Positions 85-47,600 of a DNA stretch of 55,325 nucleotides are shown here, piece after piece; the first letter of the stretch is position 1, and every line of letters begins with the position of its first letter. The position numbers were made by a program, and so were the translations under genes. The notes under the pieces are model-generated. The model did no database searches, was not told the origin of the DNA, and worked only from the letters and a program-made list of their open reading frames with translations. The DNA comes from a virus (Duplodnaviria; Caudoviricetes). The stretch lies in IMG/VR virus record IMGVR_UViG_3300017755_000007, positions 1-55,325 of that record, one strand, 5' to 3'.

Positions 85-88
85 TTGA

Positions 89-1735: not shown

Positions 1736-1736
1736 A

Positions 1737-2273: not shown

Positions 2274-2279
2274 GTCGTG

Positions 2280-2711: not shown

Positions 2712-2713
2712 AA

Positions 2714-4671: not shown

Positions 4672-4672
4672 T

Positions 4673-5479: not shown

Positions 5480-5485
5480 TTGTTA

Positions 5486-11400: not shown

Positions 11401-11512
11401 TTTTAATACGACCAGTATCTAGTTCGACGCCAAATTCGCCTTGAGCAAGGATTGGATTAGCGTTTGCCCACTCTTGAGCTCCACCACGTCTTAATTGAAT
11501 TCTATTTGCCAT
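5486..11512 (-). CDS. Long fibre protein, 2008 aa, with an Mtd_N/hyaluronidase-type N-terminal domain, in the wac (fibritin) position
   Basis: N-terminus RIQLRRG..EW...NPILA.GE.G.E.DT...KIGDG.T.WN.L; beta-helix-like G.L.V repeats; located directly upstream of g13. Confidence 0.8.
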   Translation of the reverse strand: MANRIQLRRGGAQEWANANPILAQGEFGVELDTGRIKIGDGVTAWNTLRYERPIESVSNTANTLVQRDADGNFSAGTITATLIGNAATSSRLASSRQIQLTGDIVGSQIFDGSQNIQITSTLDLISTLPHHDNTATSSATYTKVTVDAKGRITNASNPTTLADYGLNTSIEGTGAQPFDNDLQAIANLTTSGLISRTATNTMATRTITGTATRIAVNDGGGISGNPTIDLIVTPVVLGNYNTESLTSVSGTGSNSEPFGTETVNAVKFTVDGYGRLTSATNVPIATATEGSKYAAYAGGTTYARYDIIEESTGVYQAIASIAAGQGAPTHTDASDAGAWRYLGAATVEQKGLASFAQEDFDVDANGHVTIAAVGVDNTQLQNNRVSFADGNTKEDFELDQELTATTGYRGFNYLNYIKVNDTSGNLLIGANNTGDSGAGELDINVRSYFSDPDITLDGDVNQTLDKTGDGNLTFQLTQNTDTNRNFNILTTNAGAGTSNIIITAEDTVQISASEAAGKVHVEDYRFQTNYLGTTDATMHLDPGDDRAVTGLVRIHGNLQIDGTTTTVNSTQLTVDDVTILLGGDTVPTTDDNLDRGIEFNYYDTQARLGFFGWDTNYSDLAAHAGGYRFLHAATNTSEVFSGTDSGIIAGNLKLTTGTASTTNTTGDLVVAGGVGITGAVNIGDLLDVDSTLRVHSTSRFDDNMVIQGASKTLQLNNGSGTTKIEFQSTTGNGSLAGILDVTGNLNVNTNKFNVVAASGNTTIAGTLGVTDVATFTNNIDANGDVAIAGNIHSESTNDITTAKNGSTGEWEIQSNDYGSLKVDGGAYVAGSALIDGTLHVNGAIEVKDSATETESRLNWLRVRYRGRFGDTYQASPSYASHNFSTVKAHGGAGIMKSLYVGATGSNERFSVGKLNSGDTEKFSVIGATGDTTIEGTLTVNDNVNFNGTLDQDGDFAVRNGTTDKFFVAATSGDTNIEGTLTVDGHTELNSTLNVDNNVTLGAQLTVTGTTEFNNTVDVDANFAVRSGSTDKMTVASSSGNIATDGTLVVQGQTTINDSLIVDAANEVFSVRNGSAVEKFGVDADNGNTNIIGTLTVGDATQVNDTLGVSDVVTFTRNTEQTLTGTYGADGAFRLSGGAGIARNLAVGGAARVYGNTELTGTLDLNNSADISGALVTHDDVTITADNKTFAIQNASAANKFTVDTDNGNTDIRGTLDIGGDVTAESNLTVTGNLTINGTTTTVNSTVTTIDDPIITVGGDTAPTSNDAKDRGVEFRYYDGSAKIGFFGYDRSANQFAFVTDATNSSEVLSGTDGQLRAGSLNLTGSGTSLDVDANANIDGTLTVDGQIISQVASGAALVIPNTTKINNLNADLLDSMTTASTATATTVVARDSNADFAANQITVNNGIGAVAGIQGNATSADALRTARVITIDGVVDGNVSFDGSAAVTITTTYNDPDITALAAMSGTGYVVRTAANTYAQRTLAVTASSGITLTNADGVSGNTTINVASSANNAANNLVLRDGSGDFAAGIITAALVGNVTGQVSDISNHDTGDLSEGSNLYFTNERVDDRIDALFVASTGITKVYDDTAGTYTLSVTQADVNTDNVTEGSTNLFTTAARTRTHFTYGTGIEHDGSGALSVTQADINTDNVTEGSTNIFYTEARFDASLAGKNTANLAEGTNLYYTDARADARIAAADTDDLSEGSTNLYHTSARADARVNLQTGANLDLSSKSTSDLSEGTNQYYTEARVQTKLDNAFAQLQAMLTNLATTTTLTLNLSGDPTPGAAVTTSVTNGGGGGFTAGTAVATTGGTGTSLTVNTTVVGGVITAAAVNAGGSGFLVNETVTVTNANAGKVLSLNLASLAGGSNYVTGTALATTGGSGSASLTVNITASAGAITNVTINDGGTGYVAGETITIVQPTGADGLNPAAGGSVDVATVATNATLQLTDVTTMEVGATVTGATSGTTGVITGLAASAITVDTVDGFFKVGEVVSANDVTTLTVQSFA
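6250..6860 (-). repeat. Six imperfect protein repeats T[DAS][DN][LV].EG(S)[TS]N.[YF].T..R in the fibre
   Basis: TGDLSEGSNLYFTNERV, TDNVTEGSTNLFTTAART, TDNVTEGSTNIFYTEARF, TANLAEGTNLYYTDARA, TDDLSEGSTNLYHTSARA, TSDLSEGTNQYYTEARV. Boundaries approximate. Confidence 0.85.
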
Positions 11513-25374: not shown

Positions 25375-26595
25375 TCAAACGATAACGTTAATAGTGCCAT
25401 TCATCTGTGCATGAATGGTGCATTGATAATAAAGAGTGTTTGGAGCATCCATTGGGATTGTAAAGTACAATACCGAAGTTCCACTACCAGTTTGACCTGT
25501 AGTATATGGAGTTCCTGTTAATCCCTGAGTGCTTTGAACTCTAAATGGGTGTTGTCCCCCATTTGTACTATTGTCAAAGGCATATGTCATTCCTCTCATC
25601 ACATAGAGAGTGGGATCACTTGTGACTCCAGAAAATCCAGGACCATTAAATGTAAAGTTATTAGCACCATCAGCACCCAGTTCCCACCAAGTAAGTGGAC
25701 TACGAGTCACAACCCAATCAGTTCCATTCCAATATAAAGAATCGCCTTGAGTGATACCAGTAACATCAGTATCAGTTAATGCAGCAAGAGTTGTAGTAAG
25801 AGTACCATTGAAACTTACTGTTAGTGTATCACCAGTAACTTGTGTGGCAATATTAGTACCACCAGTAATTGTTAATGTATCGGAAGAAGTATTAGCAGTT
25901 GTACTTCCAGTATCCCCCGCAATGGTAGCAAAGATATTCTGTTCTCCTGCACCAGCTACATCATCAGCAGGAACAAAATTAGTTCCATTCCACTTCAGTA
26001 CTTGGTTAGTTGTAGGAGCAACAGTTGTAACATCAACATCAGACAGAGCATCAATCCCAGAATACTCAGTAAGAAGTTTTGCTCTAGTATCACCAACACC
26101 ACCAGAAGTGATGTTCATGTTCACATATGGATTATCATCACCATCAACTGTAAAGAAATAACCAGGTGTAGATGCTGCAGTAGGGGCATTACCTAATGTA
26201 GTATATTCATTTTTATAGGAAATTGTCGATCCTACACTAACACCACCAGTAGCACCATCAAAAATAGTAGTTAAACTTCCAGTGGTAATTCTAACGTCAC
26301 CTGTTCCGTTTGGAGCAAGAGTAATATCACCATCAGATGATGAAATGATAGAATTACCAGAAACGTCTAATGCAGATGTTAATGCATTGAAATTACCAGG
26401 AGAAAATGATGACCCATCATATTTTAAAACTTGACCCACTGCGGGATTTAATACAGAGATGCCCAAAGCAGACCCATTACCAATGGCGGTATATAGTTCA
26501 TTAAAATTATCATTAATTTTGTCACCGCCACTCCTTAGAGTATCACCTGTATTGTCATTGGCAACTGTGCCAATGTTTAGGGATTGTTTAGCCAT
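25375..26595 (-). CDS. Baseplate protein with gp9/gp10-type N-terminus and C-terminal cupredoxin-like domain, 406 aa
   Basis: KQ.LNIG..A.D.TGD.LR.GG.KIN.NF.ELY is the T4 gp9/gp10 N-terminal motif; C-terminal YYQCTIHAQMNG. Confidence 0.82.
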   Translation of the reverse strand: MAKQSLNIGTVANDNTGDTLRSGGDKINDNFNELYTAIGNGSALGISVLNPAVGQVLKYDGSSFSPGNFNALTSALDVSGNSIISSSDGDITLAPNGTGDVRITTGSLTTIFDGATGGVSVGSTISYKNEYTTLGNAPTAASTPGYFFTVDGDDNPYVNMNITSGGVGDTRAKLLTEYSGIDALSDVDVTTVAPTTNQVLKWNGTNFVPADDVAGAGEQNIFATIAGDTGSTTANTSSDTLTITGGTNIATQVTGDTLTVSFNGTLTTTLAALTDTDVTGITQGDSLYWNGTDWVVTRSPLTWWELGADGANNFTFNGPGFSGVTSDPTLYVMRGMTYAFDNSTNGGQHPFRVQSTQGLTGTPYTTGQTGSGTSVLYFTIPMDAPNTLYYQCTIHAQMNGTINVIV

Positions 26596-26615: not shown

Positions 26616-26622
26616 TATTTAT
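26616..26622 (-). promoter_or_regulatory. T4-type late promoter core (ATAAATA) overlapping the g7 stop codon
   Basis: cATAAATAa about 21 nt upstream of the 406-aa start. Confidence 0.65.
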
Positions 26623-29600
26623 GAGATTACTTCAGGGTCAATTACCTCTTCCCCATATAAGGAGATATCTGGTGCAGTCCAATCATCAGGAACTGTTGTT
26701 TCAACGTTCACATCTGGATTTTGATATCCAGTTCCAGTGTCTGTAACAGTAACACCAGCAACACCAATCAATGCCCTAACTTGACCTTCAAAACCAGAGA
26801 TAGAGTCAAGTCTTACTGTAGGTCTAGAAGTATATCCAGATCCACCAGCAGTGATTTGTACCTTTTCAATAAATCCTGAAGTGAGATTGGCAGTTGCTTG
26901 TGCGTTCTGACCGAATACAGATCCAAGATAATCAAATGTAATTAAAGAGTTTGAAGACTCAATAACAGCAACCTCACGATCACTAACTTCACCTTGAATA
27001 TCTATGAAGTCACCTGCTTCAACTGGAGGTACAACAACATCAGCATCAACGTCTGCCTCAGAACCAACGTATGAGAATGCAACGAAAGTAGATCCGAATC
27101 TAGGAATCTCCGAGAAGATGATTCTAGAACCAACAATCTCAAAACCAACTCCAGGTTCCTGAAGAACTCCATTGATAGAAACAATAATATTATTTTCAGG
27201 GCGGATAGTTGAAGATTGAACACCATCTGTAAGTGTAAGAGAGTAGAATATCTCATCTCTTCTCAAATTGAAGGATTGGCGTAATGAGTCAAACTCGAAT
27301 GAAATATCATCCAATTGTCTTAACTTACCAATATAGAATCCAGTAAAGGAAGATCCAATATCAGGTGGTTCGGAGAACTGAATCTTATCAGAGAACGCAG
27401 TATATGCAGCACCCGCACCAGGTGGTTGTAGAATGCCATTGATGAAGATTAGCATATGACCTGCAGGATCTGGTAGATACTGAGTGCCCTTCTCAGTGGT
27501 AAGATTGAAGGTAGTTTGAACACCGTCAAATCCACGGAAGAATCTCTTAACTCTTGCTTTCAGAATCTTTCTAGTAAGAACACTTGAACGATAACCTTGT
27601 GGACCTCTTAGACCATCTCTACCAGTAAACGTTCCAATAACATTTGTTAGGTATAATCTCTTACTAAGTCCAACATCACGAACATCTTGCACAAGACCAG
27701 ACGCTGCACCTGCAACAGTAGTTCTATTGGAAACTGTAGCAGTTCCCTGCAGAACAGTTTCACCCAATCCAAAATCACCAATAATATCTGTGATATTGAA
27801 AGAACCCTGTATTGGTGTGACATATATGTAATTATTATCAAGATCAACTTCGGTAATAGTTCCATATACGCTGGTGTCTTGTACACCACCACTAACCATT
27901 CTATAAAGTTTATTACCAACTTGGAATAGATCGAGAGTGGCATCTACAGAAACTGTTAATCTGAGATATCCGATAGAGGCAATTCTATCACCAACACTGA
28001 TATCAAGACCTGCATACTTCTTAACTTCAAGATATTCTCTAGAAGACTCGGGATAAACAACTGATGTAGTTTCAAGAGATCCTAATAAAGTCTCAGTATC
28101 AACAGTTAGAATACCACCAGTATTATTAGTAACAGCAGACTGATTAACTGTATAAGAAATGGGTTGTGCAGACTCGGTGCTAGTATATCCTTTGAATGAA
28201 ATATCTTCTTCAAAAGATCCTCTGACGTTGATAACGTGTAAGCGATTTTCAATGGCACTTACTTGTGCTGTAGTGGTATTGGTGGCACCTTCAATAATAT
28301 CAGTGATTGACCAAGTTCCAGCAGTAACAGCAACATCGAGATACTTATAGTTTTCATCTTCATAGAATCCATAAACAATACCAGTTATGCTGCCATCACC
28401 TTGCTTTTGAACCACTTCATTCATTGTGAAAGGTCCATCAGTAATATTACCATCAATTCGGAATCTCTTATATGCTTTAGCAACCTTAGCTTCATTTATA
28501 GCAATTGTTTGAATCTCTGCATAGGTATCTTTATCAAGGGAATAGAAATAATCAGATCCAATAAGTTCACCACTAATTCCGACAGGAATATCTCTAGTTC
28601 CATAAGATTTAGTTTGAATTGTAATTGAATTTGTTAAATCAACATTAGTGTAATGATTACTAGATTTTAATTGTTCTTCAATGATATCAATATTGCTTCT
28701 GATGAATCCCATGACAGATTTTCCATCATAGTTAGCACCAGCAGTAGAATCGTAGAATTTGTAGAATCCTGAAGTAGGAGATGGACTTATTAGATCATTA
28801 TCCAATGCTCTTCTAAAGAAATCCTGTAAGAGATCTAAAGTAAATTTCTTAATATTATATTCAACATTTGCATAAAATTCTTGACCAGAAACAGCAACAT
28901 ATGTTCCCAAGACTTCATTCGATAACTTAGCGCCCCAAGCAAATACACCTGGTCCACCAGTAATATCTAAAAGATAAATGGATCCTGCATTTGAATTTTG
29001 ATCATCTCCTCCTGAAGCAGCAATATAAAGATTGCCGCTAATAAGTGTTACTGCACTACCAAATAAATCTGCAACGTTGGCATCAAATGCGCTTTCAATA
29101 ATTCCGTTAGTCCCATCTAAATCATACAAGAACACCAAACCTTGAGTAGCAACTCCACCACTAGATAATTGATCGTTAGGGGCACCAACAGCAACTTTAC
29201 CATTATCAATAGTCATTGAATGACCAAACTTGATTCCTGCAGCACCACCACCATCACCACCAGCGACGGGAGTCAACTCTACTTCATTAGTACCATCTAG
29301 ATCAAACACCCATGCTCCACCTCTAGCAGCATTACCACCGACTGTCATATTGGGAGAGAAAACACCAATCTTATTATCACCAATAACTACACCATAACCA
29401 AATTGATCCCCTGTTGAAGAACCCGCATGAGTGAACTTAACTTCATTTGCACCATCAGCAGCATCATAAACATAAACAGCACCTGTGCTACTTGTTTCAC
29501 CAAGAGCACCAACAGCAACTTTACCATTTCCAGCAGCGACTGAGAATCCGAACCTATCACTAGCAGCAGCATCGGATGCTTGAATACTATATTCAAAATT

Positions 29601-32600
29601 ACCACTTAAATCATAAACACATACTGCACCTTGTTGTGCTTGATTGTTTGCTGCACCACTCCAACCGTTAGCACCGATGTAGACTTTATTGTTGAAGATA
29701 GCAACAGATTGTCCAAAGTAATCGTTAGATCTTTGGGTTAGATCAGAAGTACTCATATCAATTTTAACTTCATTACCACCATCTAAATCGTAGATGTAAA
29801 CTCTGCCTGCATTGGCAAGACCATTCATAGTTTCGCCATATGCACCAATAGCAATCTTACTATTTCCAATTGAAGTAGCATTTCCAAAGTAAGCGAAAGA
29901 AGATTTAACACCAGGGAAAAGTTGAACTTGATTTGAACCATCTTGATCATAAACATATACGGTTCCATTACTAGTAAGACCATCTGTAGATGCTAGACCT
30001 GCACCAATGACTACTTTTCCGTTTCCACTAGACATACTCTCAGCAGTTCGACCAATTTGGGAATTGTTAGCGAGTGCAGGAGTAAGTTTGATGTCATTTG
30101 CAGTTCCTGTAAAATCAAGAAGTGCTGTTGTATTACTCAGAATATTGAGTTTATTGACAAGAGTTGCAAATCCAAAACCAAATTCTGTGGTAATGAACAA
30201 TCTGTACCACCCATTACCAAAAGGAATTGCTCCATGCCCAGTAACAGTAAGACCAGAGGTAGTAAAGATACTTCCAATTTGTCCTGTGGTTAAATTGGCA
30301 TTGAAATGTGCGTTCTCAGTGCCAGAATCTAAGAATACTGTAAATCTTACATTGTTATATTCAGATGCTTTTACAAACATAGACGAGGTAAATGTTTGTG
30401 TTGGATTAACCGCACCACTATCAAATTTCAATGAACCACTATCAAATTTAGATCCATCACTATCAAAGGTATCAAATGAAGTTAAACTATAAGATCTTTG
30501 AATATGATGTTGTCCTGTGGTTTCAGTAATTGCAATTTTTTCAGAAGTAATTGTATTATCAGGGGAAGTTCCTGTATTTACAGATACTTCAGTTAATGCT
30601 GTTGTCCAATTAGAATCAAATTGTTCTGGAGTTGTCCAAAGATTAGTAGGAATTATAGAACCTTCAATTAGAGAAGAAATTGCACTAGCAGTTTCGATGG
30701 TTTTGACATTAGAAGTATCATTGTACCATTCATGTACAACGGACACACCATTCTCACCAATCGTTGCCGAGGCACCAGATGGAGCAGTTATAGAATCGTC
30801 ATCTGCAAAAATTGTTCCAACTAAGGAACCAATAATCATGGTGGATCCTGAACTATAAAGAACGGTTGCTGTTGTAGATCCATTAGTAATAGTTTCACCA
30901 GCAATAAATGTCCCGTAGAATGAAGAGAAAGTTAATGTATACGCAACTTGAGTATCTGTAGTGTTACTTGTTATGAAATCATATTCAATATTATTAACAA
31001 TATCTTCAACGAAAGAATTGTATACCCAAGAATCTTGACCAAACTGATTATTTACACTAGCAGCAATTTCTTGCTTGTAATAGTTTTCATTAAATAAGAT
31101 ATTCTTAACTGCACTTCTTGCTTCAATTTTTCCTGGGAATAATGTATTCAGAGCAGTATCAAGAAGTTCTCTCATTCTACAGGAAACTGTATCAATGTCA
31201 GTTGGAGTAATTGAATCTCTATATGCAGTATTATTTGTAAATGCTGCAGCATATTGAGGACTAGTTACATTAGTGCCTCTATCATAGAGAAGATTTTTAA
31301 TTGCTTTTTCACCAAGAGTTCTAATTTGCTCATTGGCAAAGAAGAATGTGTATAGTTCATTATCGATTGTGATAATTTTCAAATCAGTAGTCAAGAACTT
31401 CTGCATCTGAGTGATGGTACTATTATTACCACCAGTTTGAAGATCTGATATCATTGCAACAATAAGATCTTGAATATAACCAGAATAAACAGTTCTTGTA
31501 TAAGTTGCTGCTGTAAATGTTCCGCTATTCAGACTATAACGAAGTTCAGTTCCAAGCAATCCAAGATTAGTTGCAGATGTTCCAACAATTTCTTCTGCGA
31601 TGTATCCTCTGTTGAAGTACAATCTATCTGCAGCAGTATTGTAATCTAATCCAGTTGGTGCAATTAGATCATTGATAGCGTCAATTAAATTATCAATAGC
31701 AGTTTGTACATTTGCACACTGCCCACTATCATTAGTAATACCCCAATCACCAGTAATAATATTGTCTGTATTGGTATAATCAAGATCACCATTGATCGCT
31801 TGCTTCATATAGTAACCAAGTCTCTCATGTGCATATGCAGACTGCCAAACTTGAAGTCTGATATGTTGAATCTCATTAATGGTATTGAGATAGAATTTAG
31901 CAGCAGTGATTGTATTGTCATTACCACCATATTCAATATCATTTGCAATTTCACCAACGATAATAGCAAGGTCAGTCTTACAACGTTCTGTTCCTGCAGT
32001 ACCACCACCAACATTTCTTGGCATAGTAGAAGCAAGATCTGGATATCTAGAAAGCATATCAGCAGATGCTTTATCTACGATAACTGAAGCGTTTGCACGA
32101 ATTAAGTTTGCTGCATCACGGAATCTATAACGATCATCAGCACCAATACTATGTGCATAAACATAATCATTAGTTGCATCGTGATATGAGGATGTGAATG
32201 GAACTTCATAGTAAGCATCCACTGTTCCACCAACGAACTCAACAATAGGATCTACCTTTGTTATAGTGGCAATATGATCAGCATTAGCATCATTTGTTGT
32301 AGTTCCAATTGCCTCACTAATAGTATCCTCTACAATATCCAAGAGATTATTAACTGTGGATACAACGTCGGCACAATCAGATGTTGAATAATTCAAAACA
32401 GTTACTGCATCAGTATCTGCCGAGACGAATGTGTGAGGATATTGCTGTCCTACTGGTGATGCGCCAACATTCACAGTAAATGTGTTTGTTGTAAATGCAT
32501 CAATTTTAATAGTGCTTTCATGTACTGGATCAGTTGCTCTAGGATAAGCATTAACACACACATCCCCATCTGAGGTACAAGTAAACTTCAGAGAACCTGG

Positions 32601-35600
32601 AGCAATTCTAATATAATCACTAGTTGTAAGTGCATGAGGAGTACCAAAGGTAAGTACCATATTTCCATTTTCAGGAGTGTATGAAACTGTACTTGGAGTT
32701 AAAGTTGTAAGTGTTGTATAGGAAGAATCTGTAACAGTTGCATCAGTAAATTGAGTAAGTCCATGACTTCCAGTAATGGTGATAGGAATATAGTTAATAA
32801 TCGAGGACATATGACCTTGAATAGTTTGTAAACCAGTCAACAACTGATTATCATCAACTGTTGAATATCCAACAATACCACTAACAGGAGTTACGGTTCT
32901 ATCAACTAATCCCGCAGAAATATCCCAGATGTGACTATTACTTCCATTACGCATATCCTCAATCAACTCAGTCAAGACTGACTTATATGTCAGAGCAAAA
33001 TTAGTCGTGCTTAGGGACTGTGTATAATTCCAAACAAAAATTTCACCTGCAGATTCAGCATTATTGGGGTCAGCAAATTTACTACCAGCAATAACTCTAT
33101 TATCGCCAACTGCAAGTGCAAAATCATCTCCAAGATAATCATATTGAGATCCTTGTTCTGTGGAGTTTAGAACAAGTTGATTTGTTCCATCAAGATCATA
33201 AGCATAAATTTTACCAGCACTAGGTTGTACAATACCAGAACCATTTGTTATTGATCTAATAGGAGCGCCAACAAATACCTTTCCTTGATTTACAGCAACC
33301 GATGCCCCAAAATTACCACCAGTACCATCAGTACCAGCAGATGAAAGGACAACTTCATTAGTACCATCTAAATCGTAGATGTATGCATTATTGCGATATT
33401 TTGCACCAACTGCAATTTTATTTTCACCGATAGCAACATGCCAACCGAATCTATCATTTTCAGCAGGCGAAGTATGATTAATTTTAACCTGATTCGTTCC
33501 ATCAAGATCAAAAACATATACAGATCCAGTTGCTGAGGCAGTATCATCATCATATGGAGCACCAGTAACAATCTTATTATTTCCAATAGCAACTGAATGA
33601 CCCAACTCGTCACCAGTAGCAGCATCAGAAGCAACAATCTTAAGTTCGTTAGTACCGTCTAAATCAAAGCGATATACAGCACCTTTGGAACTATCATTTC
33701 CATATGCACCAACAACCAAGTAATTACCATCAATAGCAACAGAATGTCCGAAATAATTACTTGCTGCAGCATCACTGGCAGTAACTTTAATTCTATTAGT
33801 ACCATCTGCGTTAAAGATGTAGACTGAACCTGAATTAGTTCCATCATCAGAGTCAGATGGAGCACCAACTGCAACCTTATTATTGTTTACAGCAACTGAA
33901 TAACCAAAAGTATCATTTTGTCCAGCATTTGAAGAACCTGCAGTTATCTTAACCTGACTTCCACCATTTAGATCAAAGATATATGCAGATCCAGAATTCT
34001 CTGCATCATCATCATCTTGATACGCACCAACAACCATTTTATTCGTTGTTCCATCATCTGAAACAGCAACTGAAGATCCAAAGTAATCATATGCAACTGA
34101 ATCGCTAGAACCGTATACTGCAGCAGCAGTACTATAATCAAGTTGATATGGTGATGCTGCAGTAGCAACAGCATCACCCTCTTCAGAGAGAAGATCGATA
34201 TTCTTAAGAACTGCAGTAGCAGCATCATAGTATCTGTGGGTTTTGTTTGCAAATCCTCTAGGAGATGTCCCAACATTTACAGTAACTGTAGTTCCACTTA
34301 CTGCCGTTACATCAAGTGTAACACCGAATGACGGATCAGTAGAACGTGGATATGTATGATTTGTAACATAGTTATCCTTATCACAAGTAAATGTCAGGGA
34401 GTTTGCAGCAATAGTAAGAGTGGATGAAGTTGTATAACTATGAGACCCGATTGTAAGTACAAGAAGACCTGTAGATGAATCATAAGTTGCATCGGTTGGA
34501 GTCTTATTGGCACTATCGATAGTGATAGCGTTTGTTGTAGCACTTACAAACTGGTGTAAACCACCATATTGTCTAGTAGATCCAGTAATTGCATCATTGT
34601 TGAATTCTTCACCATCAGTAAAGGACTCAGTACCAGACCAATCTTGAGTATATGTTTGACCGTTTGTTCCATCAAAGTGAAGGAGGAGTTTGGTGTTTGC
34701 ATCACCGTGGAACATACCTGTGGGAGCAGTAAACGTTGCCGTGTAACGAGCACTGTTAGAGACTCTAAAGTCGTCAAAATATCCAGGAGTAACAGCAGAA
34801 CCTGCATAGTCAGCACCAATTCTAATTGGTTTTGTTGAACCGTAGTTGCTAGCGTCTGAGTATGTACCACCCTCTTGAGTGCCATTTAAGAACAACTTAG
34901 TGTCAGTACCACTTCTAGAAATAGCAACATGATACCAGGTATCAACTACAAGAGTTGTTGCGCCAGTAATAGTTACAGAACCATTATTGTAATACTTAAT
35001 ATTTGCACCATCGACATACAGATAAGGAGCAAGTTCCGTTGCACCAGATCTCATATCAAAAATAGTCTTACCACCAGCAGCAACACTGTTCAGTTTGATC
35101 CAGGTTTCAACAGTAAAGTCTCCAGAAGCAAATCCAAACTCTGTAGAAGTTGGAATAGTTAGATACTCATCAATAGGTACTGGACCAACGTTTACCGTGA
35201 TTGTAGTATCAGTTTCTGCTGTAATCGCGAGAGCAGAACCAGATGCAGGATCGGTAGCACGAGGATACGCATAATTATTAGTATTATTATCCGAACCACA
35301 AGTAAATACAATACCATCATCAACAATTGTTACTGTATTTGATGTTGTAAGAGTATGAGTACCGATAGTAATAACCATATCACCCGTGAATGGGTTATAT
35401 GTTGTTCCTGTAGCAGCAGTAAACGACCCTGTAGCGCCACCGCCAGCAATAATCGCATCATCAACACCACTTACAAAACTATGCGCTGACGTACCCTTAG
35501 AGAGTGCTAGACATGCGCTACCAAACTTAGAGTTTGCTGTATTAAGTTGAGCACCTGCAACAAATGATGCAGTATGATAGTCTTGACCTGTAGATTGAGA

Positions 35601-38600
35601 TCTACCAATTTTACCAAGATAAAGTGTATTTCTTGCTTGACTATATCCAATAATTTCTGCCTTAGTATCTGCTGTTCTGATAATTTGACCACTAGAGAAG
35701 AATCCACCACCAACAAGATCAGTAAAGGTTAGTTTTCTTACTGCCATATTTTCATTGGCACTAAAGTCGCCAGTATTACCGCCATAAAGAACACGGTAGT
35801 TTCTGATAAACTCATCATCAGTAAATTCACCAGTTTCATTATCGTAAATTACAATATTATTACTAATAGATTCATTATTAGGGAAATCTGCATTAAATGC
35901 AGTTACATTATCAGTAAAATCAACGATACTTACTTGTGAATTGGAAATATCATCAATAATCTTATTAGGATAACTAATTGATGTTAATCTGTTGAACAGA
36001 AGACCAAAGAAAGAAGATCCAGATGAAATATTAACCTGTTCAATAAACTCTTGAGTTATAGGATCCTGATATGCGCTAGTAGAAGTGATACGAGCAACAA
36101 CACCAGATTGAGCACCAATAATAACATCATTCAGTTGAATATTAAAGAGACCAGGTGTGGACTGATATGTTCCTGCAGTCTTACTTAAAGTTAAATCATT
36201 GGTAACTTCAATATCAGTAGAATACATTGGAGTGTCTTCCTGATGAGAAGTAGCTGCTGTCCCAAGTTGTCCTCTAGTTACGACAATAGTTGTCGAATCT
36301 GATCCATTGGTTACGGAGGTAACTGTAACAATTTCAGAGGCAATTTGATAATCATCATTCTCCACAAACGTTCCAATAGGAACTGGTGTATCAACACCTG
36401 CTGCTGTAGAAACTACCTCAACATTTGTAGTTGAAGCTCCAATACCATAGCGAAGTTTTGCAATAGGAGTTTCTTGACCCGTTTCAAGGTTAATTGTTTC
36501 TACGACTGCAAGATCTCCATCCAGATTTGTAATTTGTTCGTTAAAAACAAATAATCCATTGCTGTAGATACCACTATCAATAGTTTGAAGAGTTCCAGAG
36601 AATCCAGTAGCACCAACTTGACATTGCTCACCACTAACAAAAGTTCCTTCAGTGACAAATCCACGAATAGTATCACCAATAACATTAGTGACAGTAAGTC
36701 TTGCTCCAGAAGTAATTCCAATTAAAGTATTACCGACATTAGGGAAAATACCGCTCGTGAAAGAGAATTCCAAATCAACAGTTGCAATTTGCTGAATTCC
36801 TACGCTCACATACTTAACACTTGCTGGAGGTGAAGGTGGTTCTGAGAAAATAATTGAATCTCCTTGAACTTCGAAGGAAGCATCTGGAGTTTGTGCAACA
36901 CCATTTAGAACAACAAGAAGTTGATTAGCGTTAGCAATTACATTTTCACCATTAACTGTTAGTGGGAATTGCGTTCTTTCGCCATCAAATAAATTGGACA
37001 TATCATCAAGACGTTGAACAACGGAAGTGAGGATATTCTCAGAAGAGGTCAATCTTCTTTGACGGAATAAAACTTCAGTATTATTGAACTCAGAGTAAAT
37101 TGGTTCCGCCAGAGCAAAGTTTTGAATATTTGGTACAGTTGCTTCTCTAGCGAGTTCAACAGACTTAGTTAATTCAAAATCAATTTCTCTATTTGCGGTA
37201 TACCCATACTCTCCCAAATTAAGTTCACCAAAAACCTTAAATGATGCAGGGTGAACATTTTTAATTAGAATATCTTTCCAATCATCAATAGAAACCGAGG
37301 ACTTAACTGCATATGAGAAATCTTGATAATAGTAAGAGTCTTGAATTTTTTGAATAATCTCAGAAGGTTTTCCAACATCATCAATGAATTGACCCGTTGT
37401 CTTGGTAATAGGTCCAATCTCTAGAACACCTTTAGCAATATTAAGATCGCTAATAACACCAGAGGACTTAGAAATTACACCAGTAACTTTTTGATTTTCT
37501 GAGAAAACTCCCGTGTAGTCAACGACTTTTAAAATTCTAGGTCCAACTTGCCAACCTTGGTTTGTAGAAACAAATCCAGTAGCAGTTGCATTTTCTAAAC
37601 TATCTCCTTGGTAAACCATTTCACCTTCTAAGAAGGTCGAGGTAATAACATTTGCTTCTGCAGCTGCACCAAACGATTCTGTCAATACTTGCTGTCTACC
37701 CGTTCCAGCATTAGCAAATGTAATAGCATCACCCAATTCAGCGTTAGCTGGTGTAATAGCAAGTTTCAGTTGATCTCCATCAAGGGAATTTGCTGTACCA
37801 GTAATTGCATAATAAGTAGTGTTTCCATTAAGTCTACCAACAGCACCAGAAGCGAGTGGGAATTCTATACCATCACCAGTATCAACTACATTAAGAGTAA
37901 CTGCAGAACCATTTACAATTCCATGTGGGAATGCAAATTGGAGTAGTCCCAAATCAAGGTTTACAACATAGTTGAAAGAAGATTTCAAAGATACTGTTGG
38001 TGCAGAAGAATAACCAGCACCAGGATCTTTAATAAGTATTTGCTCAATTCTTCCATTTCTAATACTTGCTTCGGCAATAGCACCAGATCCACCACCACCA
38101 GTAATAATGATAGCAGGTGCTTGCGAGTAACCAGAACCAGGATCAGTAACTGTGATACTATCCAGAATACTAGTAGATGTTAATTGCGCGTTGATTGGGA
38201 AAGTGATTTCAGGGCGCAACGTATAGTCATGTGGATAATCATAACCAAAGTTATTATTCTTAAGTTTTTTAATCTTACCAACATTTGTACCTTTAGTGAA
38301 GATTACTGCACCAGTTCCAAATGGAGGGATAACAACGTTGATTGCAGCACCAGATCCAGTCAGTCCAGCTCCAAGAATTCCATCAATGGATTCAATATCA
38401 ATAAATGCAGTAGTGTATCCCTTACCAGGAGATGTAATTGTTACCTGTTGAATTTGACCAGGAATAGTAACACCTTCATCAGTTTGTCCATTAGCGACTA
38501 CAATTGTTACCAATCCACCTTCACCATCACCACTGATAGGAACACTGTTATATGTCCCAACCTGATATTCAGTACCAGGTTCAGAGATCTCTGCTCTTTC

Positions 38601-41600
38601 AATTTTTCTAGAAGACTCAATACCTGTTACAATAGGCAATCTAGAATAAAATCCACCAGAGTTAACTAATCTAATTTGACCTATACTACCAACACCTTTT
38701 TTCGAACTTGTCATGTAATTGGTGTTCGTAATGGTAGCAACTCCTTCTGGTTCATTAGACAGAGGGAATTTCATAGTTTTTGCACCAACTGTAATTGTTG
38801 CTCCAGTAACCTCACTAATAGTAAATGTTCCAACATATGGAGAATCAACAATATCCAGATAACTAGAGGGGTCTACAGGTGTATCTGCACCCGTTCTAGA
38901 TGGATCAAAGTAGTAAGAGATATTAGTAACAGTATCCTGACCAACTTTAAACTTAACTGTAGGAGTTGGTTGACCTTCTCCAGTGATACCAGGAGTACCA
39001 ATACGTTCAATAGAATTGAATGAATATTCAAGTTTATACAAATTATCTTTAGAGAAAGACAGGTTTGCACCAAGCATCGATGAGTGACTTAGATCAAACA
39101 GATACTGATGACCATAATACATTTTTAAGACAGGAGATTTACTGAAAATGCTAACATTTGCTGCATTTGGTGCTGGATCGGTTTGAGCAGCAGCAGGAAG
39201 TTTGTAAACGAATTCTCTATCGCTTACAACAGTATCAACAGTAAAAGAACCATCATATTCATCGTATACAGTTCCACCAGCAGTTTGAGAAGGATTGCCA
39301 TCAACTAAAATATTATGACCAACATCAAGATAATGTCTAGAAGATGTGATGATGTAAACTTCATCAGTATTAACAACACTTGTTGCTTGCAATACCTTAT
39401 CTAAGGTAGCAACTAAAGTAATTTTAGTGACACCTGTTAAATTAGTAATTTGAGCAGTAGTTTTAGCAGTATTGAAGCTAATATCAGATGCTGTAATACT
39501 TACAACTGATCCAGGAATAAACGAAGTGCTGCCAGAAACTTCTACAATTTGTACACTGTAAATATCAGCACCAAATGGTTTGAATTTTGCAAATGAATCT
39601 AGATTTTGTCCACCACCCGCATTATAACCAGTACCATCTAGATTATAATCATCCAAGTCTATATCAAAAGTACCAGGAGTAGTATTGACTATATCGCCAA
39701 ATACATATCTTTCAATTACATTTACATCACTTGGAGTTGTTCCAATAATACCATAAGTATCTTTCTCATCAAATTGTTCGGTTGACAATAAACCTGTATT
39801 AAGATCATCACTCCAAGAATTATTATTTACAGCAACATAAACTTTATTATTAGTGGTATCAGTTTTAATAACATAACCACTATTAATAAACGATCCTGCA
39901 TCTGTATTCAATACAAGTTTAGATCCTAAAGTAATTTGAAAATCTTGATTAAGTGATAATTCTTGAATATTATCAATTTTAACAGTATCCGTTACTTTCA
40001 TATAGTAACGATCTTTTACAACTGCAGATACTTTAAGTTTTTTAGATCCAGGAGAAGGAACGGTTGCTGTTCTGGAACTCCAGATATCAGAACTGTATGT
40101 TAACGTTTCAGTTCCTTCCTGCATCGTAGTTGTAGCATCTTCAAAATCCAATCCTTGGAATCCAGAAGTTCCAAGAGCAAATCCAGTAGAGGAAACAGTC
40201 ATACTAACTCCAGTTACTGGAGTTATTGCAGTTCTGACTAGTCCAATATTTGTAGTGCTTAGAATTCCTTTGTCGCCAAGTCTATCAGTATCAGAGTCTT
40301 TGTCTACTTTTAATCCCCAACCAATATAATCGATATAATCATAGCGACTTGTGTTAGTAGCAAACCAAGCATCATCTGCCCAATCCAATGCAAGAGCATA
40401 TGCTCCTACAGGAGGGATGGTAGTTACATCAGAAGGAACTGTAGGCGCAACAGCTCTATTTTTAAGTCTGACCGTATCAATATATCCTTGGAACTGCTCG
40501 TTAGAACGGAATTGACCAGTTGTTGTAGATCTACCAGGAATATTACCAAAATGAATATCTTTGTTGGTAAAAATAGTATCTGAGATAGTTCCAGTTAGAA
40601 TTTCGGTACTATTTACATATACCTTAAATACATTACCTTCTTTCTTAATACCAATAAATTGCCAAGAGTTATCAGCATACATTGTTGTCTGAGTAGACTG
40701 TATTGCTCCTCCTGCAGAATTAATTGACGTGGTGTCATTAGTAACAACTAACTCTAGTCTGCCACTACTTTCATCATAATATAACCAGAGACCACCTGTA
40801 GCATCAGTAGCATCACCAATACTAACCAAAGTATATTGTGTTTGACTGAAGGACTGATATTCAGATCCATTTTTATAGATCATGAACTCAAGAGTCCAAT
40901 CATCATTCAGTTTTGTTCCAAGTTCAGATCCAAGAATTTTTACTGTGGCATTTTCCCAACTAGATGGAGATGCAGTTTGATATCCTTGAATGAATGCATA
41001 ATCTGCTAAAAATCTTACAGAATCCCCTGTTTCAACAATTGAAGGTGTGTAGTGACCTGTAATATCAGTTGCTTGTGTTGCACCAGTAGTAAATGGTAAT
41101 ACAAACTCATTTCTATTCCATTGAGTTTGACCAAATGCATAGACATCACCAGAATTATCTACGGTGATGGCATTAACTGTGATACCTTCAATGTTATTTG
41201 CATTAAATTCACTATTAGTATGTTTCTTGAGAATACCATTATATCCAATTTTTGCAGTATCAACAGTTTTTAGTCCACTTGTACTATTAGTACTTGTATA
41301 CGCAATATTAAGATCTCCAAAAATATCAATACTACTTCTAGAAGCAAGTTCAATATTATTTCCTACAGGAGCAATATATCGATAGTTCCAAAGGAGATCT
41401 CCATTAGTATCAAGTTTTCCAATCCAGAAACTATCCTTTATAGTAGTATTGGACTTGAGTGCTAACGTTGAAGTGATATAAAACTCATTAAACTCATCAA
41501 CAATTAAACTAGTATCTCCAAATGAATATGTAACATTATTAATCTCCTTAATCCATTCAACAGTAATTACAGAAGTTCCAATAAGAACTTTACCAAAAGA

Positions 41601-44600
41601 TACTTTAACATCAGAAGATCCCTCAGTGGGAGAAGTCTCCATGACAAAGTATACTGCATCATCCAAAACAATAAGATCGGTAATCTTTTCAGATCCATTA
41701 ACCGATGCAAGTTTTCTCTTTGCAGCAAACGTACCAGATGCATCTACAGATGCAATAAAAGCATCTTGTGGATTAGCAGAGTTTGTATTGGTAAAACCAC
41801 CGATAATATAACGAGAATCTGAATATCTCTTGATAGTAGTGATATTATCAGATCTTGTAGCACCAGAAATACCAGCATATCCTTTCTGGAAGTTTAAGGT
41901 AGCACTTAATCCATCAATTGCTTGTGTATATTTTGCTAAGATAATATCAGGATTATATGCAGCAAGAAGTGAAGAATTTGGTTTATTTTGACCAACTACC
42001 CAAATAAAATCTCCATTAACATCTAGTTTTACAAACTCTGTATATGTTTCTCCATCTTGACTTTCAAGAGTTTTTTCCCATTCTTTAACACCTAGTTCAG
42101 AGAACTTGGAGACAAATGCAACCTCGTTACTATTATTATCAAGAGTTTTACCACAGAAGAAAACCTCTTTATCATCATTAACAAATACATCATTAACTTT
42201 TACATAATTTTCATTTTCAATTACGGAAAGATAATAATTTGCCTTTTTAAAAACTTGAGGGTGAGATAAAATGATACGAGGGTTATTAACATATCCAGAA
42301 CCAGAATTAATAATATTGACAGTATCAATAGATCCAACCGAACTTACAATTGCTTGTAATTCTGCAGAATCGCCGTCACCATCAATAATGATCGTTGGGG
42401 GAATATCAACATCATACCCAGATCCATTTTGTTCAATAATAAGTTCTTCAACACCTTTTAATTGTCTAACAACAAACTGTTTGTTTGTGTTATCCATGAT
42501 CGGTGTATAATCCACATAAACAGTATCTTCAATAACAAGATTATGAGGATTAGTAGTTGTTAGTACACCATAGAATTTGTCTTCAACTACTTCAAAATTA
42601 TAAGAAGATATAGATTCACCCTTAATTCTAGAAACTCTAGCAGATGCACCAATTCCATCAGTATCAGTATTATCAAAAGTTAAAATATCATCAACTTGAT
42701 AATTTTTACCAGCATCTTCAATAATGAATCCAGTTACGGATGCATCTTCAAACTTGGTGGTAGTTTCAACTTCAATATCAACTTTAGAATCAAATCTTAC
42801 CGATGGGAAATAATCAAATAACTGTAAAGGAGATTCCTCAAAGAGTTGATCTGGATCGTCAGTTTCATCTTGACTAATAATACCATCTCTATTCTCATCT
42901 TCTACTTCAAACAGGATAATATCACCACCTTCTGTAGTTAAAGCATTTGTCGATGCATTAGGAGCACGTTCAACATCAATGTCAACATTCTCATAAGGAT
43001 CACGATATCTTACAACTCCTGTTGGGATATTCTGTTGGATTGCATCCTTATTCAAATTCCAAGAGTCTACAATAGAATTAAAACTTGGACCAATAACATA
43101 AGGGAATATTGGATTACCTGCTTCGGTAGTATCAACTGTAGTAAAGTAGCAATATCTACCCTCTGGAAAATCAGGAGTTTTACAGAAACGACCATTGTAT
43201 TGATCTAGATCTCCAAGACCAAATGCATATTCATAGTCTTCAACAAATTTTCCTGCAACTTCTTCGGTAAGCAAAGGACCAGCAGTTCTAACAGGATATG
43301 GATTTGAAACCCCATCATAGACTAGGTTAGTTTTTAATCGATATGAACTATTCAAACGAGTAGTATTCGAAGACTGATCCGTAGGATCTGAGTAACCATA
43401 AGGACCATAAATGGGATTGCCATCAAATGCCCAACCTATAATTGGCGAGTGTTCTAATTGAGTTTCTTGCTCTAAGATAGCACCAGTGATACTTTCAAAT
43501 AGATTATCACCAAGAATATATCTTAATTTTTGAGGGTTGGAAATATGAGCATATTCTCCCCCATATTGATTATTAAAACCAGCAAATACCGAACCTTTAG
43601 ACTCATCAACAGTTGTAGTCTCTTGTAAATTATAAGTCCACTCAAAAATATTTGGACTAAAGGTTGCTCCAGTACCAACTGATGTCAGATTGATAATAGT
43701 TGTTCCTTGAACATAATTGATGCCTCTATTGAGGATTTCAATATTAGTAACCCTACCAGCATTTTCACCATCAGTATCGATAGTAGCACGGGCAACTGAA
43801 CCAAAACCATCACCTTGAATGGTTACTTCTGGTGCTGTAGTATATCCGACACCTGCAGAAATAATTGCAATAGAAATAATTCTACCATTACTTACAATAG
43901 CTTGAGCAACTGCACCAGTTCCAGAACTCAATGTAACTGATGGTTTAGAAGTATATGAAGCACCTCCATCAGTTACTGCAATAGACTGAATTGCACCTCT
44001 AACGGAAGCAGTTGCTGTAGCGCCAGTGCCACCACCACCAACAATAGTAATAGATGGTTGAGAGGTATATCCAGTACCACTAGTATTCATAAGGATACTA
44101 GAAACAACACCTTTAGTAACAATAGCAGTTGCTGCAGCACCAGATCCATTACCACCAACAATAGAGACAAGTGGTGAGGAAGTATATCCAGATCCACCAT
44201 TATCTACAACAATTTCAGTAATAGAACCATTTACAGTTACTGCTGCAGTAGCATCTGTTCCTCCACCACCAGAAATAGTGATAACTGGAGGGAATGCCGC
44301 ATCATATGAAGATCCTGCATCTGTGATATTGATTGAAGTGACTGGTCCAAAAGTTTTTGTGATATCTGACTTATATGACCAAACTGATGTTCCATTAATC
44401 CAAGTTCCAATAGGACCAGGTGAAATAGCATTCTTAATTGAAATTGTAGAGGGTACTAATGGAAATCTATTCAGTTTACGTTGGTTTCCAGGTAAAAGAG
44501 CAGATCCTGGGAAGGGTCCGATCTTATAATTTGGAATACCAGTAGATGCAACATATGCATAATTATCATTGAAAAATGAATTCTGAATATTAGTGGTATA

Positions 44601-47600
44601 AGGACCAATAGAATTAAAAACTGCACTATTATCAGATTTTCCTTTATTAAGGTCAACAGAGACTAATATATTACCCTGAGGTACTACTTCTGCTGGTTGT
44701 GGCAATTGATATTGGAAAACAGATTCAGTATCTCTCGATGTTACTTCAAATGTTCCGTTATAAACAATTGGATTCGCACCGTAAATAGTAACTTGATCCC
44801 CAACCAAAAGACCATGGTTATTAGAACAAGTGACTGTTGCAAATGTGTTATTAATACCACCATAGGTGATAGTATCAACTTGTAATAGTTTCTTAACATT
44901 ATACAACCAGGTTGTTAATTCTGGTTTGTTGGAAGTTCCTCCAAGTTTAGATACCGATAGTTTATCTCCAGAAAGATAGTAAGATCCAGTATCTGTTAAC
45001 GTTGTTTCTTGAGCATCAACAATACCAACTACTTTAAGAACAACTTCAAGAGATGTTCCTTTATTAACGTATACAATAAGATTTGAGTTTACTTCTGTAG
45101 CAGCATCCCAGTCTTCAACAACACCGTTTACAGAACGAGTACACTCAATAAATTGGTTTAGAGACTTCTCTTTATATTGAATTAACTCAGAGTTTCCAAT
45201 TAAAAATTCACCATTTCTTTCTGGCCAACCAATAGTAGAGTCTACAGTAATAATACTATCTGTAGTATTAAGAGGTTCACCAAGTTTCGTCTTATAAGGA
45301 ACTACAAAGTTACCTTGAATAGTTTCTTCAGAAAGAACAAGTTCAAAAAGTTCTACATTAGATGTTTTAATAGAAATGAAATTTTCAATTAGAGCAGTTG
45401 CTACTGAAATATTAGGATCTGCAATATTATTATCTTGTGTTAATAATCCATCTTTAATATTTTCAGGATCTCCACTAACTAATGTAGCGCGAAGAATCGT
45501 ATCAATAGACCAAGTGGCATCAGATGGTTTGATGATTTGATCCTTAGGATAGGAAACAGAAACTTCTTCACCATAAAGAAGTTTAAACAGATAGGATATA
45601 CTGAAAGATGTACCTTTAGTGGAATAAAAATCTTTTACAGACTTAATTGCATTTCTTACATCAATTTTAGTATAATCGAGTGTAGGAACATCGGGAAGGA
45701 ATTGATCAATATATTTGTCAAGTAATCTTTTGACAAATAATGCGTCTAGACATTTTACTTCAGTATCAATTTCTGCAGTTGCTGCAACTGTATTATTAGA
45801 AAATACAGCATTACCAACTTCGGTATAATTAACAATACCACTTGCCGCTCTAGCACATCCTAAAAATTGTGCTTTATCATATCCAGATCCAACTTTAGAA
45901 ATAGAGAAACCAGTAATTTGATTCAATCCAATCTCAACAGATGCTTTAGATTGAGGAGGATCTTGAATAATAATTGTAGGAGGATTTACTGCAGAATATC
46001 CAGAACCAAAATTAGTGATATTGATGTCAGTAATTTGTCCATTAAAGACCGATGCTGTTGCTGTTGCTCCAGTTCCACTGGCATCTGTTCTGTTATCAAC
46101 AATATAAACAGAGGGAACATCTTCATACCCAACACCACCACTTAAAAGTTCAACAGATACAACTCTTCCATCACTGTCAACTAAAGTTTCTAGAACTTGA
46201 GCTCCAGTTGGATTGATTACAGCAATTCTAGGAGTTGTAAGGTATCCTTGACCAGCATTCAAAACATTAACAGATGTAACCACACCATCGGTTAAAACCG
46301 CCTGTAAGACCGCTTTAATACCATTCTCACCCACTGGTTCATCAACATAGATTAGAGGCACTGTGGTGTATCCAGAACCACCTTCAGAAACAGTAACTCC
46401 TCCACTAATACTACCGTTGGACATGGTTACTGGAGCAATCTTTGCCCCGCCAGGTTGTTTGAATGAAACTCGAGGGATAAAAGTATATCCACTTCCAGAA
46501 TTTTCAATTTCAAGACTGGTTATAGAACCATTTTCAACTACTGCTTTAATTTCAGCACTTTGTGAATCTGTGGTAGTTGGTGCTTGAATTACGACTTCTG
46601 GAGGATTAGTATCACTATATCCTCTACCACCATCAAGTAGACTTACAGACTTAATACCATTTACAAGTGCAGATGCTGCAGCACCTCTACCGTTCAAACT
46701 ATTGATTGAAACTTTTGGAGGATACTTATATTGATATCCAGATCCAGTTTGATTAATATTGATTCCAGTAAGAGTACCAGTATCACTAATACGAGCATAT
46801 CCAACTGCACCACTACCAAAATCGGGAATAGGTGCTTCAATTGAATATAAAGAAAGTAATCTGCCGTTTAAAGGTGCTTCATTAAAAATGAAAATATCTC
46901 CATCAATGAAGAAATCTTTTTTTGGTTCAAGAAGTTTATTATCATATACCGCTAGAATATATTCATCTGCAATTGGTTCATAAGATACACCATTCCTAGT
47001 AATTTTAAATTCTGTCTTATTTTCACCAAATGAACCCGAAATATCGTCAGTATCAACAATTGAATTCTCAACAAAACCACTAAGGAATGTAATAAATGTA
47101 TTAACATTATCATCACCTGCAGTTCTTACTCTAGGTGCAGTTGTAAATACAATATTTGTCCCTTCAATAACATAATCCACAGTAGGAATTAAAACTTCTC
47201 CATAAACACTAACAATTAAATGTTGTGCAGATGGACTACTAACAGGAGAAGACTGTGATGTTAGTGGAAAAGAACGAGTTGTTCCATCAAATGAATCGAT
47301 AAGTTGAGCAAGTCCAGTCCACTTTAACCTGACTTGATCATAAGAAATACCAGGACTTAATGCAATATTAGGAGAGGTTGTACTTTTTTCATAGTAGATT
47401 ACCTCATCGCCAATAAGAATTGATCCGTTTGTATCAATAAAACTATCAACACTCTCAACAACAATGGTGTCAGTTGTTTTAGTAATAGGTTCTACAATTT
47501 TTGTAGCACCACCTAAGATACTAATATCCAATTTGTCAATATCAAGATATTGCAAAAAGTTATTAACAATATTTTGACCCAATCCAGTTTTTTCTTGAGA

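Follow-up and report, generated by a model that had tools for sequence, protein, structure and literature searches.

Here we describe a helical module in a giant virion protein of an uncultured phage (Duplodnaviria; Caudoviricetes) and its relation to the light-harvesting phycobiliproteins (PBPs). The module lies in IMG/VR virus record IMGVR_UViG_3300017755_000007, a 55-kb record rated 31% complete, all 55,325 nucleotides of which were analyzed as one stretch (the window). It belongs to a giant open reading frame (ORF) of 7027 amino acids at 26619-47702 of the window, minus strand. Residues 5187-5355 of this ORF (copy 1) are a true and ancient remote homologue of PBPs and have the PBP branch of the globin fold. 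Copy 1 is a candidate bilin site because it is the sole module of the giant ORF in which Cys5241 and Asp5244 are combined with a second cysteine, Cys5329, resembling the beta-153 cysteine of PBPs, and the reading that it binds a bilin is given a probability of roughly 0.45.

Homology of copy 1 to phycobiliproteins

The homology was established with profiles of the family. A family alignment, A1, was assembled from 76 sequences, of which one is that of the window, 11 come from orthologous loci and 64 are single repeats, each taken from a different representative protein; its profile matched 155 sequences of the Protein Data Bank (PDB) at E of 10 or less, with a best E of 5.4e-8 to C-phycocyanin alpha. 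The best 60 of these 155 matches are all PBPs, smURFP or a PBP-derived 'bacterial fluorescent protein'. Positions 10-66 of A1 fall on residues 37-104 of C-phycocyanin alpha, and the Cys, Arg, Asp and G-G of the family fall on KC.RD...GG of the alpha chain, with the Cys on Cys84. Ten phycobiliproteins from a Synechococcus metagenome-assembled genome (MAG) were taken as host PBPs. Comparison of A1 with their alignment by hhalign gave a probability of 96.5% and E 7.5e-10 over 58 columns, and a hidden Markov model (HMM) of the ten scored copy 1 itself at 18.1 bits, while the best of 1000 shuffles (892 scored) had 8.1 bits and none reached the real score. The significant profile similarity spans helices A/B to E. 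Pfam PF00502 matches residues 5196-5248 of copy 1 at E 4.7e-4 and 20.6 bits (19.1 bits in the genome search), which is under the gathering cut-off of 22.2 bits; it reaches E of 0.1 or less in five of eight relatives scanned, and two members of the family taken as whole multi-repeat proteins are over the cut-off (P0019, 61.2 bits; P0053, 44.8 bits).

The structure of copy 1 was predicted by AlphaFold2 without templates. The model is all-helical (pLDDT 82.7, pTM 0.81) and its seven helices are the counterparts of helices A, B, E, F, G and H of PBPs. Every match listed by Foldseek is a PBP or the 'bacterial fluorescent protein' 8u0f, with probability 1.00, TM 0.55-0.75 and a best E of 1.4e-3. VIA, a structure aligner independent of Foldseek, placed phycoerythrin beta first (5aqd_M; Z 16.8, root-mean-square deviation 3.1 A over 153 residues, model 1-164 on chain 26-184), followed by allophycocyanin (Z 14.5) and the bilin domain of ApcE (4xxi_A, Z 14.1; 12.8-12.9 in whole phycobilisomes). 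The top eight chains are all PBPs or ApcE at Z 12.8-16.8. Among other globins the photocobilins gave Z 11.6 and 10.3, RsbR and sensor globins 11.3-8.5, and haemoglobins 8 or less.

A chance likeness of a helical low-complexity stretch to PBPs would agree with the Pfam score under its cut-off, with the best Foldseek E of only 1.4e-3, and with a single-sequence phmmer search of residues 5100-5800 against the PDB, where nothing was significant and only smURFP appeared at E of about 2.6. Such a likeness is refuted by the profile search of the PDB, by hhalign with the motif in register, by the VIA alignment across 153 residues and by the shuffle control, and two family members stand over the Pfam cut-off; we consider it very improbable. 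The identity of copy 1 to any PBP is 10-22% in the structure alignments, and this rules out a recent capture from the host.

An earlier account of the window, made from its letters without database searches (the sequence-only reading), had proposed a PBP-like globin-fold domain at residues 5191-5349. These residues correspond exactly to window 31656-32132, the sequence with Cys5241 and Cys5329 is as quoted there, and the PDB profile, hhalign, AlphaFold2, Foldseek and VIA agree with the proposal, so that an unrelated fold, which was named as a possible refutation, is not what was predicted. Four blocks had been seen by eye in register with PBPs. The helix A/B block, P.L and C..D lie within the significant alignment, and GIT...C is only weakly aligned. 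A host-derived domain in the sense of a recent capture is not upheld, given the low identity and the old, widely repeated nature of the module, which also occurs in a jumbo-phage lineage outside the cyanomyoviruses.

Cys5241 (codon at window 31980-31982) and Asp5244 stand in register with Cys82/84 and the Asp of CxRD, the bilin-attachment motif of PBPs, and Thr replaces Arg, as had been read by eye. The column of Cys5329, which was likewise claimed to be colinear with the beta-153 cysteine, falls by the family HMM on Cys153 of CpcB and on the matching Cys of a CpeB-like chain, in both cases by a weak local alignment (conditional E 0.43 and 0.01, respectively). Conservation of the two cysteines, which the sequence-only reading had proposed as a check, was followed in orthologues from IMG/VR, of which 37 loci were fetched and 36 analyzed after a filter of E at most 1e-20 removed L037 (34% identity). 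Cys5241 is kept in 34 of the 36 (Lys in L027 and L036) and Asp5244 in all of them. Cys5329 is kept in 31, contiguously in 23 and downstream of a beta domain inserted in the G-H loop in 8; two are without it and in three the position could not be seen.

Copy 1 shares with the light-harvesting PBPs (CpcA/B, CpeA/B, ApcA/B; PF00502) the fold with helices A-H, the Cys and Asp of CxRD and the Gly at Cys+18 in register, and with the beta subunits a long G-H loop ending in Cys, the last by weak alignment. It differs in its low identity, in Thr for Arg and in having invariants of its own (Asp at Cys+14, G-G-N, Tyr). The X-Y helical hairpin, by which PBPs build the alpha/beta monomer, is absent, as the alignments begin at PBP residue 26-38, and therefore a PBP-type alpha/beta heterodimer is not formed. 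Unlike PBPs, copy 1 is embedded among tandem and nested copies in a virion protein, and its chromophore is only putative. ApcE, the core-membrane linker of the phycobilisome, also has a PBP-fold domain (the PB domain) inside a large multidomain protein; an insertion is present in one of its loops, and no lyase is needed for it to attach its bilin. ApcE is a cellular phycobilisome-core protein with a single PB domain, whereas the giant ORF has several modules and is an extracellular virion protein. Globins associated with bilin biosynthesis (BBAGs), as well as photoglobins or photocobilins, are distant PBP relatives outside the antenna, some having CxRD or CxQD, which are linked to heme oxygenase (HO) and ferredoxin-dependent bilin reductase (FDBR) and are lyase-free, according to the available part of PMC10151467. 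BBAGs, found in non-photosynthetic bacteria, are small single-domain cytoplasmic proteins, unlike the phage modules.

The module as a repeat of giant virion proteins

An exhaustive search of 1.84 billion representative sequences found 242 representative proteins having the module at E of 1e-3 or less. These are mostly of 1,000-7,900 amino acids, with up to 24 matched stretches each. Through iterated HMM searching of the 242 proteins and of the loci, 1248 repeats were aligned, with the family consensus CxRD, in which Asp is conserved in 98%, Arg in 84% and Cys in 95%. Further invariants are an Asp at Cys+14 (97%), G-G-N (82/72/89%) and a Tyr (97%), and a second Cys is present in 44% of the repeats having a residue at that column. 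These percentages are inflated, that of the Cys included, because degenerate copies drop below the inclusion threshold. The module is still recognized by its score in copies with other residues at the motif (Y-S-G-Y here; FEKR, WFGW and others in MAG G001), and hence CxRD is not required for the fold. There is no domain model for the module in Pfam, PHROGs or NCBIfam, and PHROGs name the proteins only 'virion structural protein' or 'tail fiber'. The module is one unit of a large family of helical modules of about 160 residues, which stand in tandem in giant tail and baseplate proteins, both in T4-like cyanophages and in an uncultured lineage of jumbo phages, and serve as scaffolds, with beta domains (FG-GAP propellers and a small FTC/YPR domain) sitting in their B-E and G-H loops. 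In the fibre and baseplate proteins of phages it is an old building block that recurs widely.

The giant ORF itself illustrates this arrangement (Table 1). Copy 1 had been described as an alpha-helical island in a beta-rich protein; it is instead one of several tandem and nested copies. Copy 2 follows it directly and has Y-S-G-Y at the CxRD positions, with Cys5508 lying 5 residues off the second-Cys column. Across the 34 orthologues in which copy 2 was seen, the Cys is kept in 19 (14 with full CxRD) and absent in 15, and the clade of the window is among those without it. A further copy upstream (copy 0) appears to be split. The FG-GAP propeller is apparently inserted in its B-E loop, and the helix at residues 4486-4508, upstream of the propeller, is probably its N-terminal piece. 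The middle piece has Phe at the Cys position and no CxRD. In the C-terminal helix Cys5110 stands on the second-Cys column and is preceded by a small inserted 'FTC...YPR.TDP' beta domain; by blastp residues 5329-5348 and 5110-5129 are 40% identical.

Table 1. Features of the giant ORF, with residue ranges and positions in the window.
Feature	Residues	Window	Strand	Evidence or remark
Giant virion/baseplate structural protein	1-7027	26619..47702	-	between gp6 (47709-49802) and gp9/10-like ORF (25375-26595)
PBP-like module, copy 1	5187-5355	31638..32144	-	family HMM 153.1 bits; AlphaFold2; Foldseek; VIA
C-K-T-D motif of copy 1	5241-5244	31971..31982	-	aligned on PBP CxRD bilin site; Thr at Arg position
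Second cysteine of copy 1	5329	31716..31718	-	N-terminal end of last helix (model 146-163), after long G-H loop
PBP-like module, copy 2	5353-5525	31128..31646	-	HMM 61.1 bits, E 8.3e-21
Probable N-terminal helix piece of split copy 0	4486-4508	34179..34247	-	weak: score -0.9, conditional E 0.1
FG-GAP beta-propeller region	about 4520-4895	33018..34145	-	Pfam FG-GAP_2 198.6 bits
Middle piece of copy 0 (HMM positions 52-139)	4909-5001	32700..32978	-	single-protein search 10.6 bits, E 2.9e-5; six-frame window search E 0.0082
C-terminal helix of copy 0	5089-5130	32313..32438	-	13.2 bits, E 4.6e-6; E 0.0013 in six-frame window search
Possible start of degenerate fourth module	5528-5579	30966..31121	-	low confidence: score -1.6, conditional E 0.16
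Small beta domain, three copies	~4020-4110, ~4395-4480, ~5000-5088	~35370-35640, ~34260-34520, ~32440-32700	-	

The giant ORF has three copies of the small beta domain, which reads 'TY.P.TG...TIG.H.L ... FTC..D....YPR.TDP ... TVNVG'. In 11 of the 36 orthologues a copy of it stands in the G-H loop of copy 1, right before the helix of the second Cys. A second FG-GAP region is found at residues ~5990-6400, after the possible start of a fourth module. Residues 5259-5313 and 6231-6281 gave a blastp match of 29% identity at E 1.4, and a further split module may have its distant half in the latter.

The giant ORF has 18 Cys among its 7027 residues (0.26%) and contains Baseplate_wedge, YHYH and laminin-G/ConA-like domains besides the two FG-GAP propeller regions and the PBP-like modules. 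Baseplate_wedge (PF23786) scored 28.5 bits on the first 1500 residues (cut-off 27), at residues 677-723, and PHROGs 18802 and 701 ('virion structural protein') match at E 1e-80 or better. The gene order is gp6, giant ORF, gp9/10-like ORF, a 1381-residue ORF and gp8. Like T4 gp7-type wedge proteins and the giant 'virion structural protein' of cyanomyoviruses, the giant ORF has the Baseplate_wedge domain and is placed between the genes of gp6 and gp9/gp8, in the baseplate gene block; T4 gp7, unlike it, has no PBP-like module. The name gp7, which the sequence-only reading had used, holds in part. The orthologue is annotated 'similar to gp7' in S-RIM2 and 'virion structural protein' in S-CAM22, and in S-CAM22 RefSeq puts gp7 on the neighbouring ORF of 1375 amino acids, so that the name follows some records only. 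The counterpart of that 'baseplate wedge initiator gp7' in the window is the 1381-residue ORF with a YHYH domain (21224-25369, minus strand).

The window as a whole holds a T4-type structural block with gp15, neck proteins, a fibre starting with Mtd_N, a DUF4815 protein, gp8, the 1381-residue YHYH protein, the gp9/10-like protein, the giant ORF and gp6. Among cultured phages the region is closest to Synechococcus phage S-CAM22 (62%), Prochlorococcus phage P-SSM7 and S-RIM2. The fibre-like ORF of 2008 amino acids (5486-11512, minus strand) has an N-terminal Mtd_N (major tropism determinant N-terminal) domain at 51.9 bits. Two plus-strand ORFs of 161 amino acids (30007-30492 and 38184-38669) lie antisense to the giant ORF and are probably not genes.

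Carriers of the module and their bilin genes

The distribution of the module was surveyed in 50,697 phage records. A 701-residue region of the giant ORF matched 307 of them, all of Synechococcus, Prochlorococcus or 'Cyanophage', and a relative with six repeats matched 349, of which 340 are cyanophages and 9 are 'Marine virus'. Among cultured phages the module was found in cyanophages only, and the equal prevalence in phages of non-photosynthetic hosts, by which the sequence-only reading would have fallen, was not observed. Five complete phages with heterotrophic hosts (Mosig of Pelagibacter, 2.275.O of Vibrio, Phosso of Sinorhizobium, PA5oct of Pseudomonas and GAP32 of Cronobacter) gave no match to the A1 profile, and the same query was positive in 5/5 MAGs. 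A repeat protein of jumbo phages also matched Campylobacter (17), Pseudomonas (11) and Agrobacterium (2) records, which were not checked singly; PA5oct is without the module. A match of this protein in Mosig was rejected, since it concerns other domains and no repeat is present in that region or in the whole genome.

A motif-pattern scan of 185,579 prokaryote genomes yielded 17 loci, every one of them a true member of the family and located in a MAG, the labels of these MAGs being diverse; the degenerate DNA pattern used requires C, R, D and G-G-N and is thus biased to intact motifs. These loci are likely mis-binned phage contigs, because T4-type capsid genes were found in three of five MAGs tested, in two of them on contigs that also hold repeats. 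The capsids of G001:C57 (a 335-kb contig) and G002:C300 are 65-70% identical to those of PA5oct, 2.275.O, Phosso and GAP32, which are jumbo phages of proteobacteria and not cyanomyoviruses. The module is hence also present in an uncultured jumbo-phage lineage, other than cyanomyoviruses, with a PA5oct-like capsid. Another contig, G006:C1 (194 kb, from a Synechococcus MAG; L048, L051-L053), resembles a cyanophage genome binned with its host and holds many repeats, two FDBR matches and a CpeT. A PF00502 search of this MAG returned only the chromosomal PBPs and not the phage repeats.

Bilin genes were searched in the carriers. The 13 other ORFs of at least 150 amino acids in the window, which is a fragment of a genome, include no HO, FDBR or CpeT family, in agreement with the sequence-only reading. 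A bilin gene is present somewhere in all five complete module-bearing cyanomyoviruses: CpeT in S-CAM22, S-RIM2 and S-PM2, FDBR in P-SSM7, and FDBR with HO in P-SSM2. This sample is small and non-random, and the hosts make bilins anyway. The expected co-occurrence with cpeT is seen in S-CAM22, the closest cultured relative.

More telling is the jumbo lineage, in which G001:C57 has HO (49.5 kb), FDBR (51.2 kb) and three repeat ORFs (80, 252 and 265 kb) on one contig, and no psbA was found in the G001 MAG. The cassette (L162, G001:C57:43000-58000; L163, G002:C493) consists of a cell-wall hydrolase, a tetraspanin-like membrane protein, ClpS, heme oxygenase (HemO) and then bilin reductase; in G002 it lies on a contig other than that of the capsid, syntenic with C57. 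A CN-hydrolase stands between heme oxygenase and bilin reductase in one genome, and IMP dehydrogenase and Hsp20 are near the cassette in G001. Ten IMG/VR contigs carry a close relative of the jumbo FDBR, all ten with HO and none with psbA. Repeats are present on all five of these contigs of at least 92 kb, and the five without repeats are all of 56 kb or less. G027, of 357.6 kb and rated 100% complete, has HO, FDBR and nine repeat matches. About five independent genomes are represented, since G021 and G001 are probably one phage and G023 appears near-identical to G024. HO and FDBR are at least 30 kb away from the repeat ORFs on jumbo contigs. This pairing of the module with an HO-FDBR cassette resembles the association of BBAGs with HO and FDBR genes.

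Pelagibacter phage Mosig (a SAR11 phage, MT647606.1) has a bilin reductase at 39713-40231, and an annotated ferrochelatase is also present. The bilin acceptor of Mosig, if any, is something other than the PBP-like module.

Candidate bilin binding and its meaning

Binding of bilin by the retained sites is probable to the extent that the motif can be absent while the fold persists, and that bilins are bound by the nearest relatives in both sequence and structure (PBPs and ApcE, then photocobilins). In copy 1 a bilin would be linked by a thioether to Cys5241 during folding of the virion protein in the infected cell, possibly with a second one on Cys5329. The bilin would be supplied by the host, or by phage heme oxygenase and bilin reductase, and its attachment would be autocatalytic as in BBAG globins or performed by a T-type lyase such as the CpeT of close relatives. 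The particle would then bear a few chromophores at the baseplate periphery, which might stabilise the module or render it light-responsive, a role that is speculation at present. The C-K-T-D of copy 1 is not disqualifying, because a CxQD variant of the CxRD bilin site of PBPs is used in photoglobins and BBAGs attach bilins without lyases, as stated in the available part of PMC10151467.

Several observations weigh against bilin binding by copy 1. A site of the Cys5241 type occurs in just one of the three to four modules of the giant ORF, and CxRD in just three of the seven repeats of G001:C57. Arg is found at its CxRD position of copy 1 in none of the 36 orthologues, and is Thr in this one, and the alignment of the second Cys is not significant by itself. 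The X-Y hairpin is lost, the Cys conservation of the family is inflated, and the invariants proper to the family are foreign to PBPs, which hints at another or an additional role. The high copy number together with the nesting resembles a structural repeat. As to the bilin genes, CpeT is present in just three of five cyanomyoviruses and in none of four jumbo records tested, Mosig has FDBR without any repeat, and four cultured jumbo phages have neither the repeat nor an FDBR, which speaks against a tight link. HO or FDBR was found on none of 14 capsid-anchored jumbo contigs, although repeats are on nine of them; this was not counted against co-occurrence because the cassette is about 188 kb from the capsid gene in G001:C57, and the 14 contigs (210 kb or less, 8-60% complete) would not reach it if syntenic with C57.

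Many of these observations would be accounted for by an apo module, in which the PBP fold was adopted at an early date purely to serve fibre and baseplate proteins as a rigid helical spacer and insertion scaffold without chromophore, and Cys, Arg and Asp serve in packing, a cross-link or contact with a neighbouring virion protein. The many tandem and nested copies with beta domains in their loops, the absence of the motif from two or three of the three to four copies here and from four of seven in G001:C57, the family-specific invariants, the lost hairpin, the database names confined to virion structural protein or tail fibre, and the FDBR of Mosig without the module are all in keeping with it. 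It does not explain why precisely three bilin-contact residues of PBPs are the best conserved at 10-22% identity, when the fold signature survives in copies minus these residues, nor why both cysteines of copy 1 persist in 31-34 of 36 orthologues, nor why HO and FDBR are found beside such proteins in jumbo phages without psbA. We regard an apo module as quite plausible, at somewhat less than an even chance.

Binding of some other ligand, be it a different tetrapyrrole, a metal or a molecule of the host surface, or engagement of the Cys in a disulfide or other cross-link, is improbable. Heme and other cofactors are bound within the globin superfamily, the model also matches sensor globins and RsbR (Z 9-11), the Asp...Asp...G-G-N...Tyr invariants could make a separate site, and copy 1 lacks the Arg; yet all of the nearest matches in structure and in sequence bind bilins, and no column of the proximal-His type was seen among the conserved positions. 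A disulfide between the two cysteines cannot account for the 95% conservation of the first, because the second is present in only 44% of repeats with a residue there, and the two bilin sites are far apart in PBP beta chains.

A proposal wider than bilin binding by copy 1 can be made, and we consider it unlikely as a whole. Phage particles would carry covalent bilins on PBP-like modules of the baseplate and fibres, these modules would supply the acceptors so far missing and thereby account for the heme oxygenase, bilin reductases and CpeT of phages, including Prochlorococcus phages and jumbo phages without psbA, and the chromophore would make the adsorption apparatus responsive to light. The role of a light sensor is attractive because the adsorption of P-HM1, P-HM2 and S-PM2 is light-dependent and independent of photosynthesis, as reported in the available part of PMC6628666.

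No description of PBP-like domains in phage virion proteins was found in the literature searched, most subscription journals lying outside the search. If the proposal is true, it would be the first case of a photoreceptor that forms part of a virion and would give a molecular basis for light-dependent adsorption of cyanomyoviruses, with a bearing on what makes the adsorption of some of them depend on light. It bears also on why phages make bilins. How the bilin genes help Prochlorococcus phages is called unclear in the available part of a review (PMC2984593), and a 2024 paper uses the word 'enigmatic' for the HO-FDBR cassettes in phages whose hosts are probably not cyanobacteria (PMC11480375). 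The origin of PBPs is concerned as well, since the module constitutes a very large phage-borne branch of the family; the 'precise origin remains unclear' according to PMC10151467, and from the part of that source available the phage-borne branch is apparently outside its analysis. Even without a pigment, the fold of an antenna protein has been reused as a nested structural scaffold in virions.

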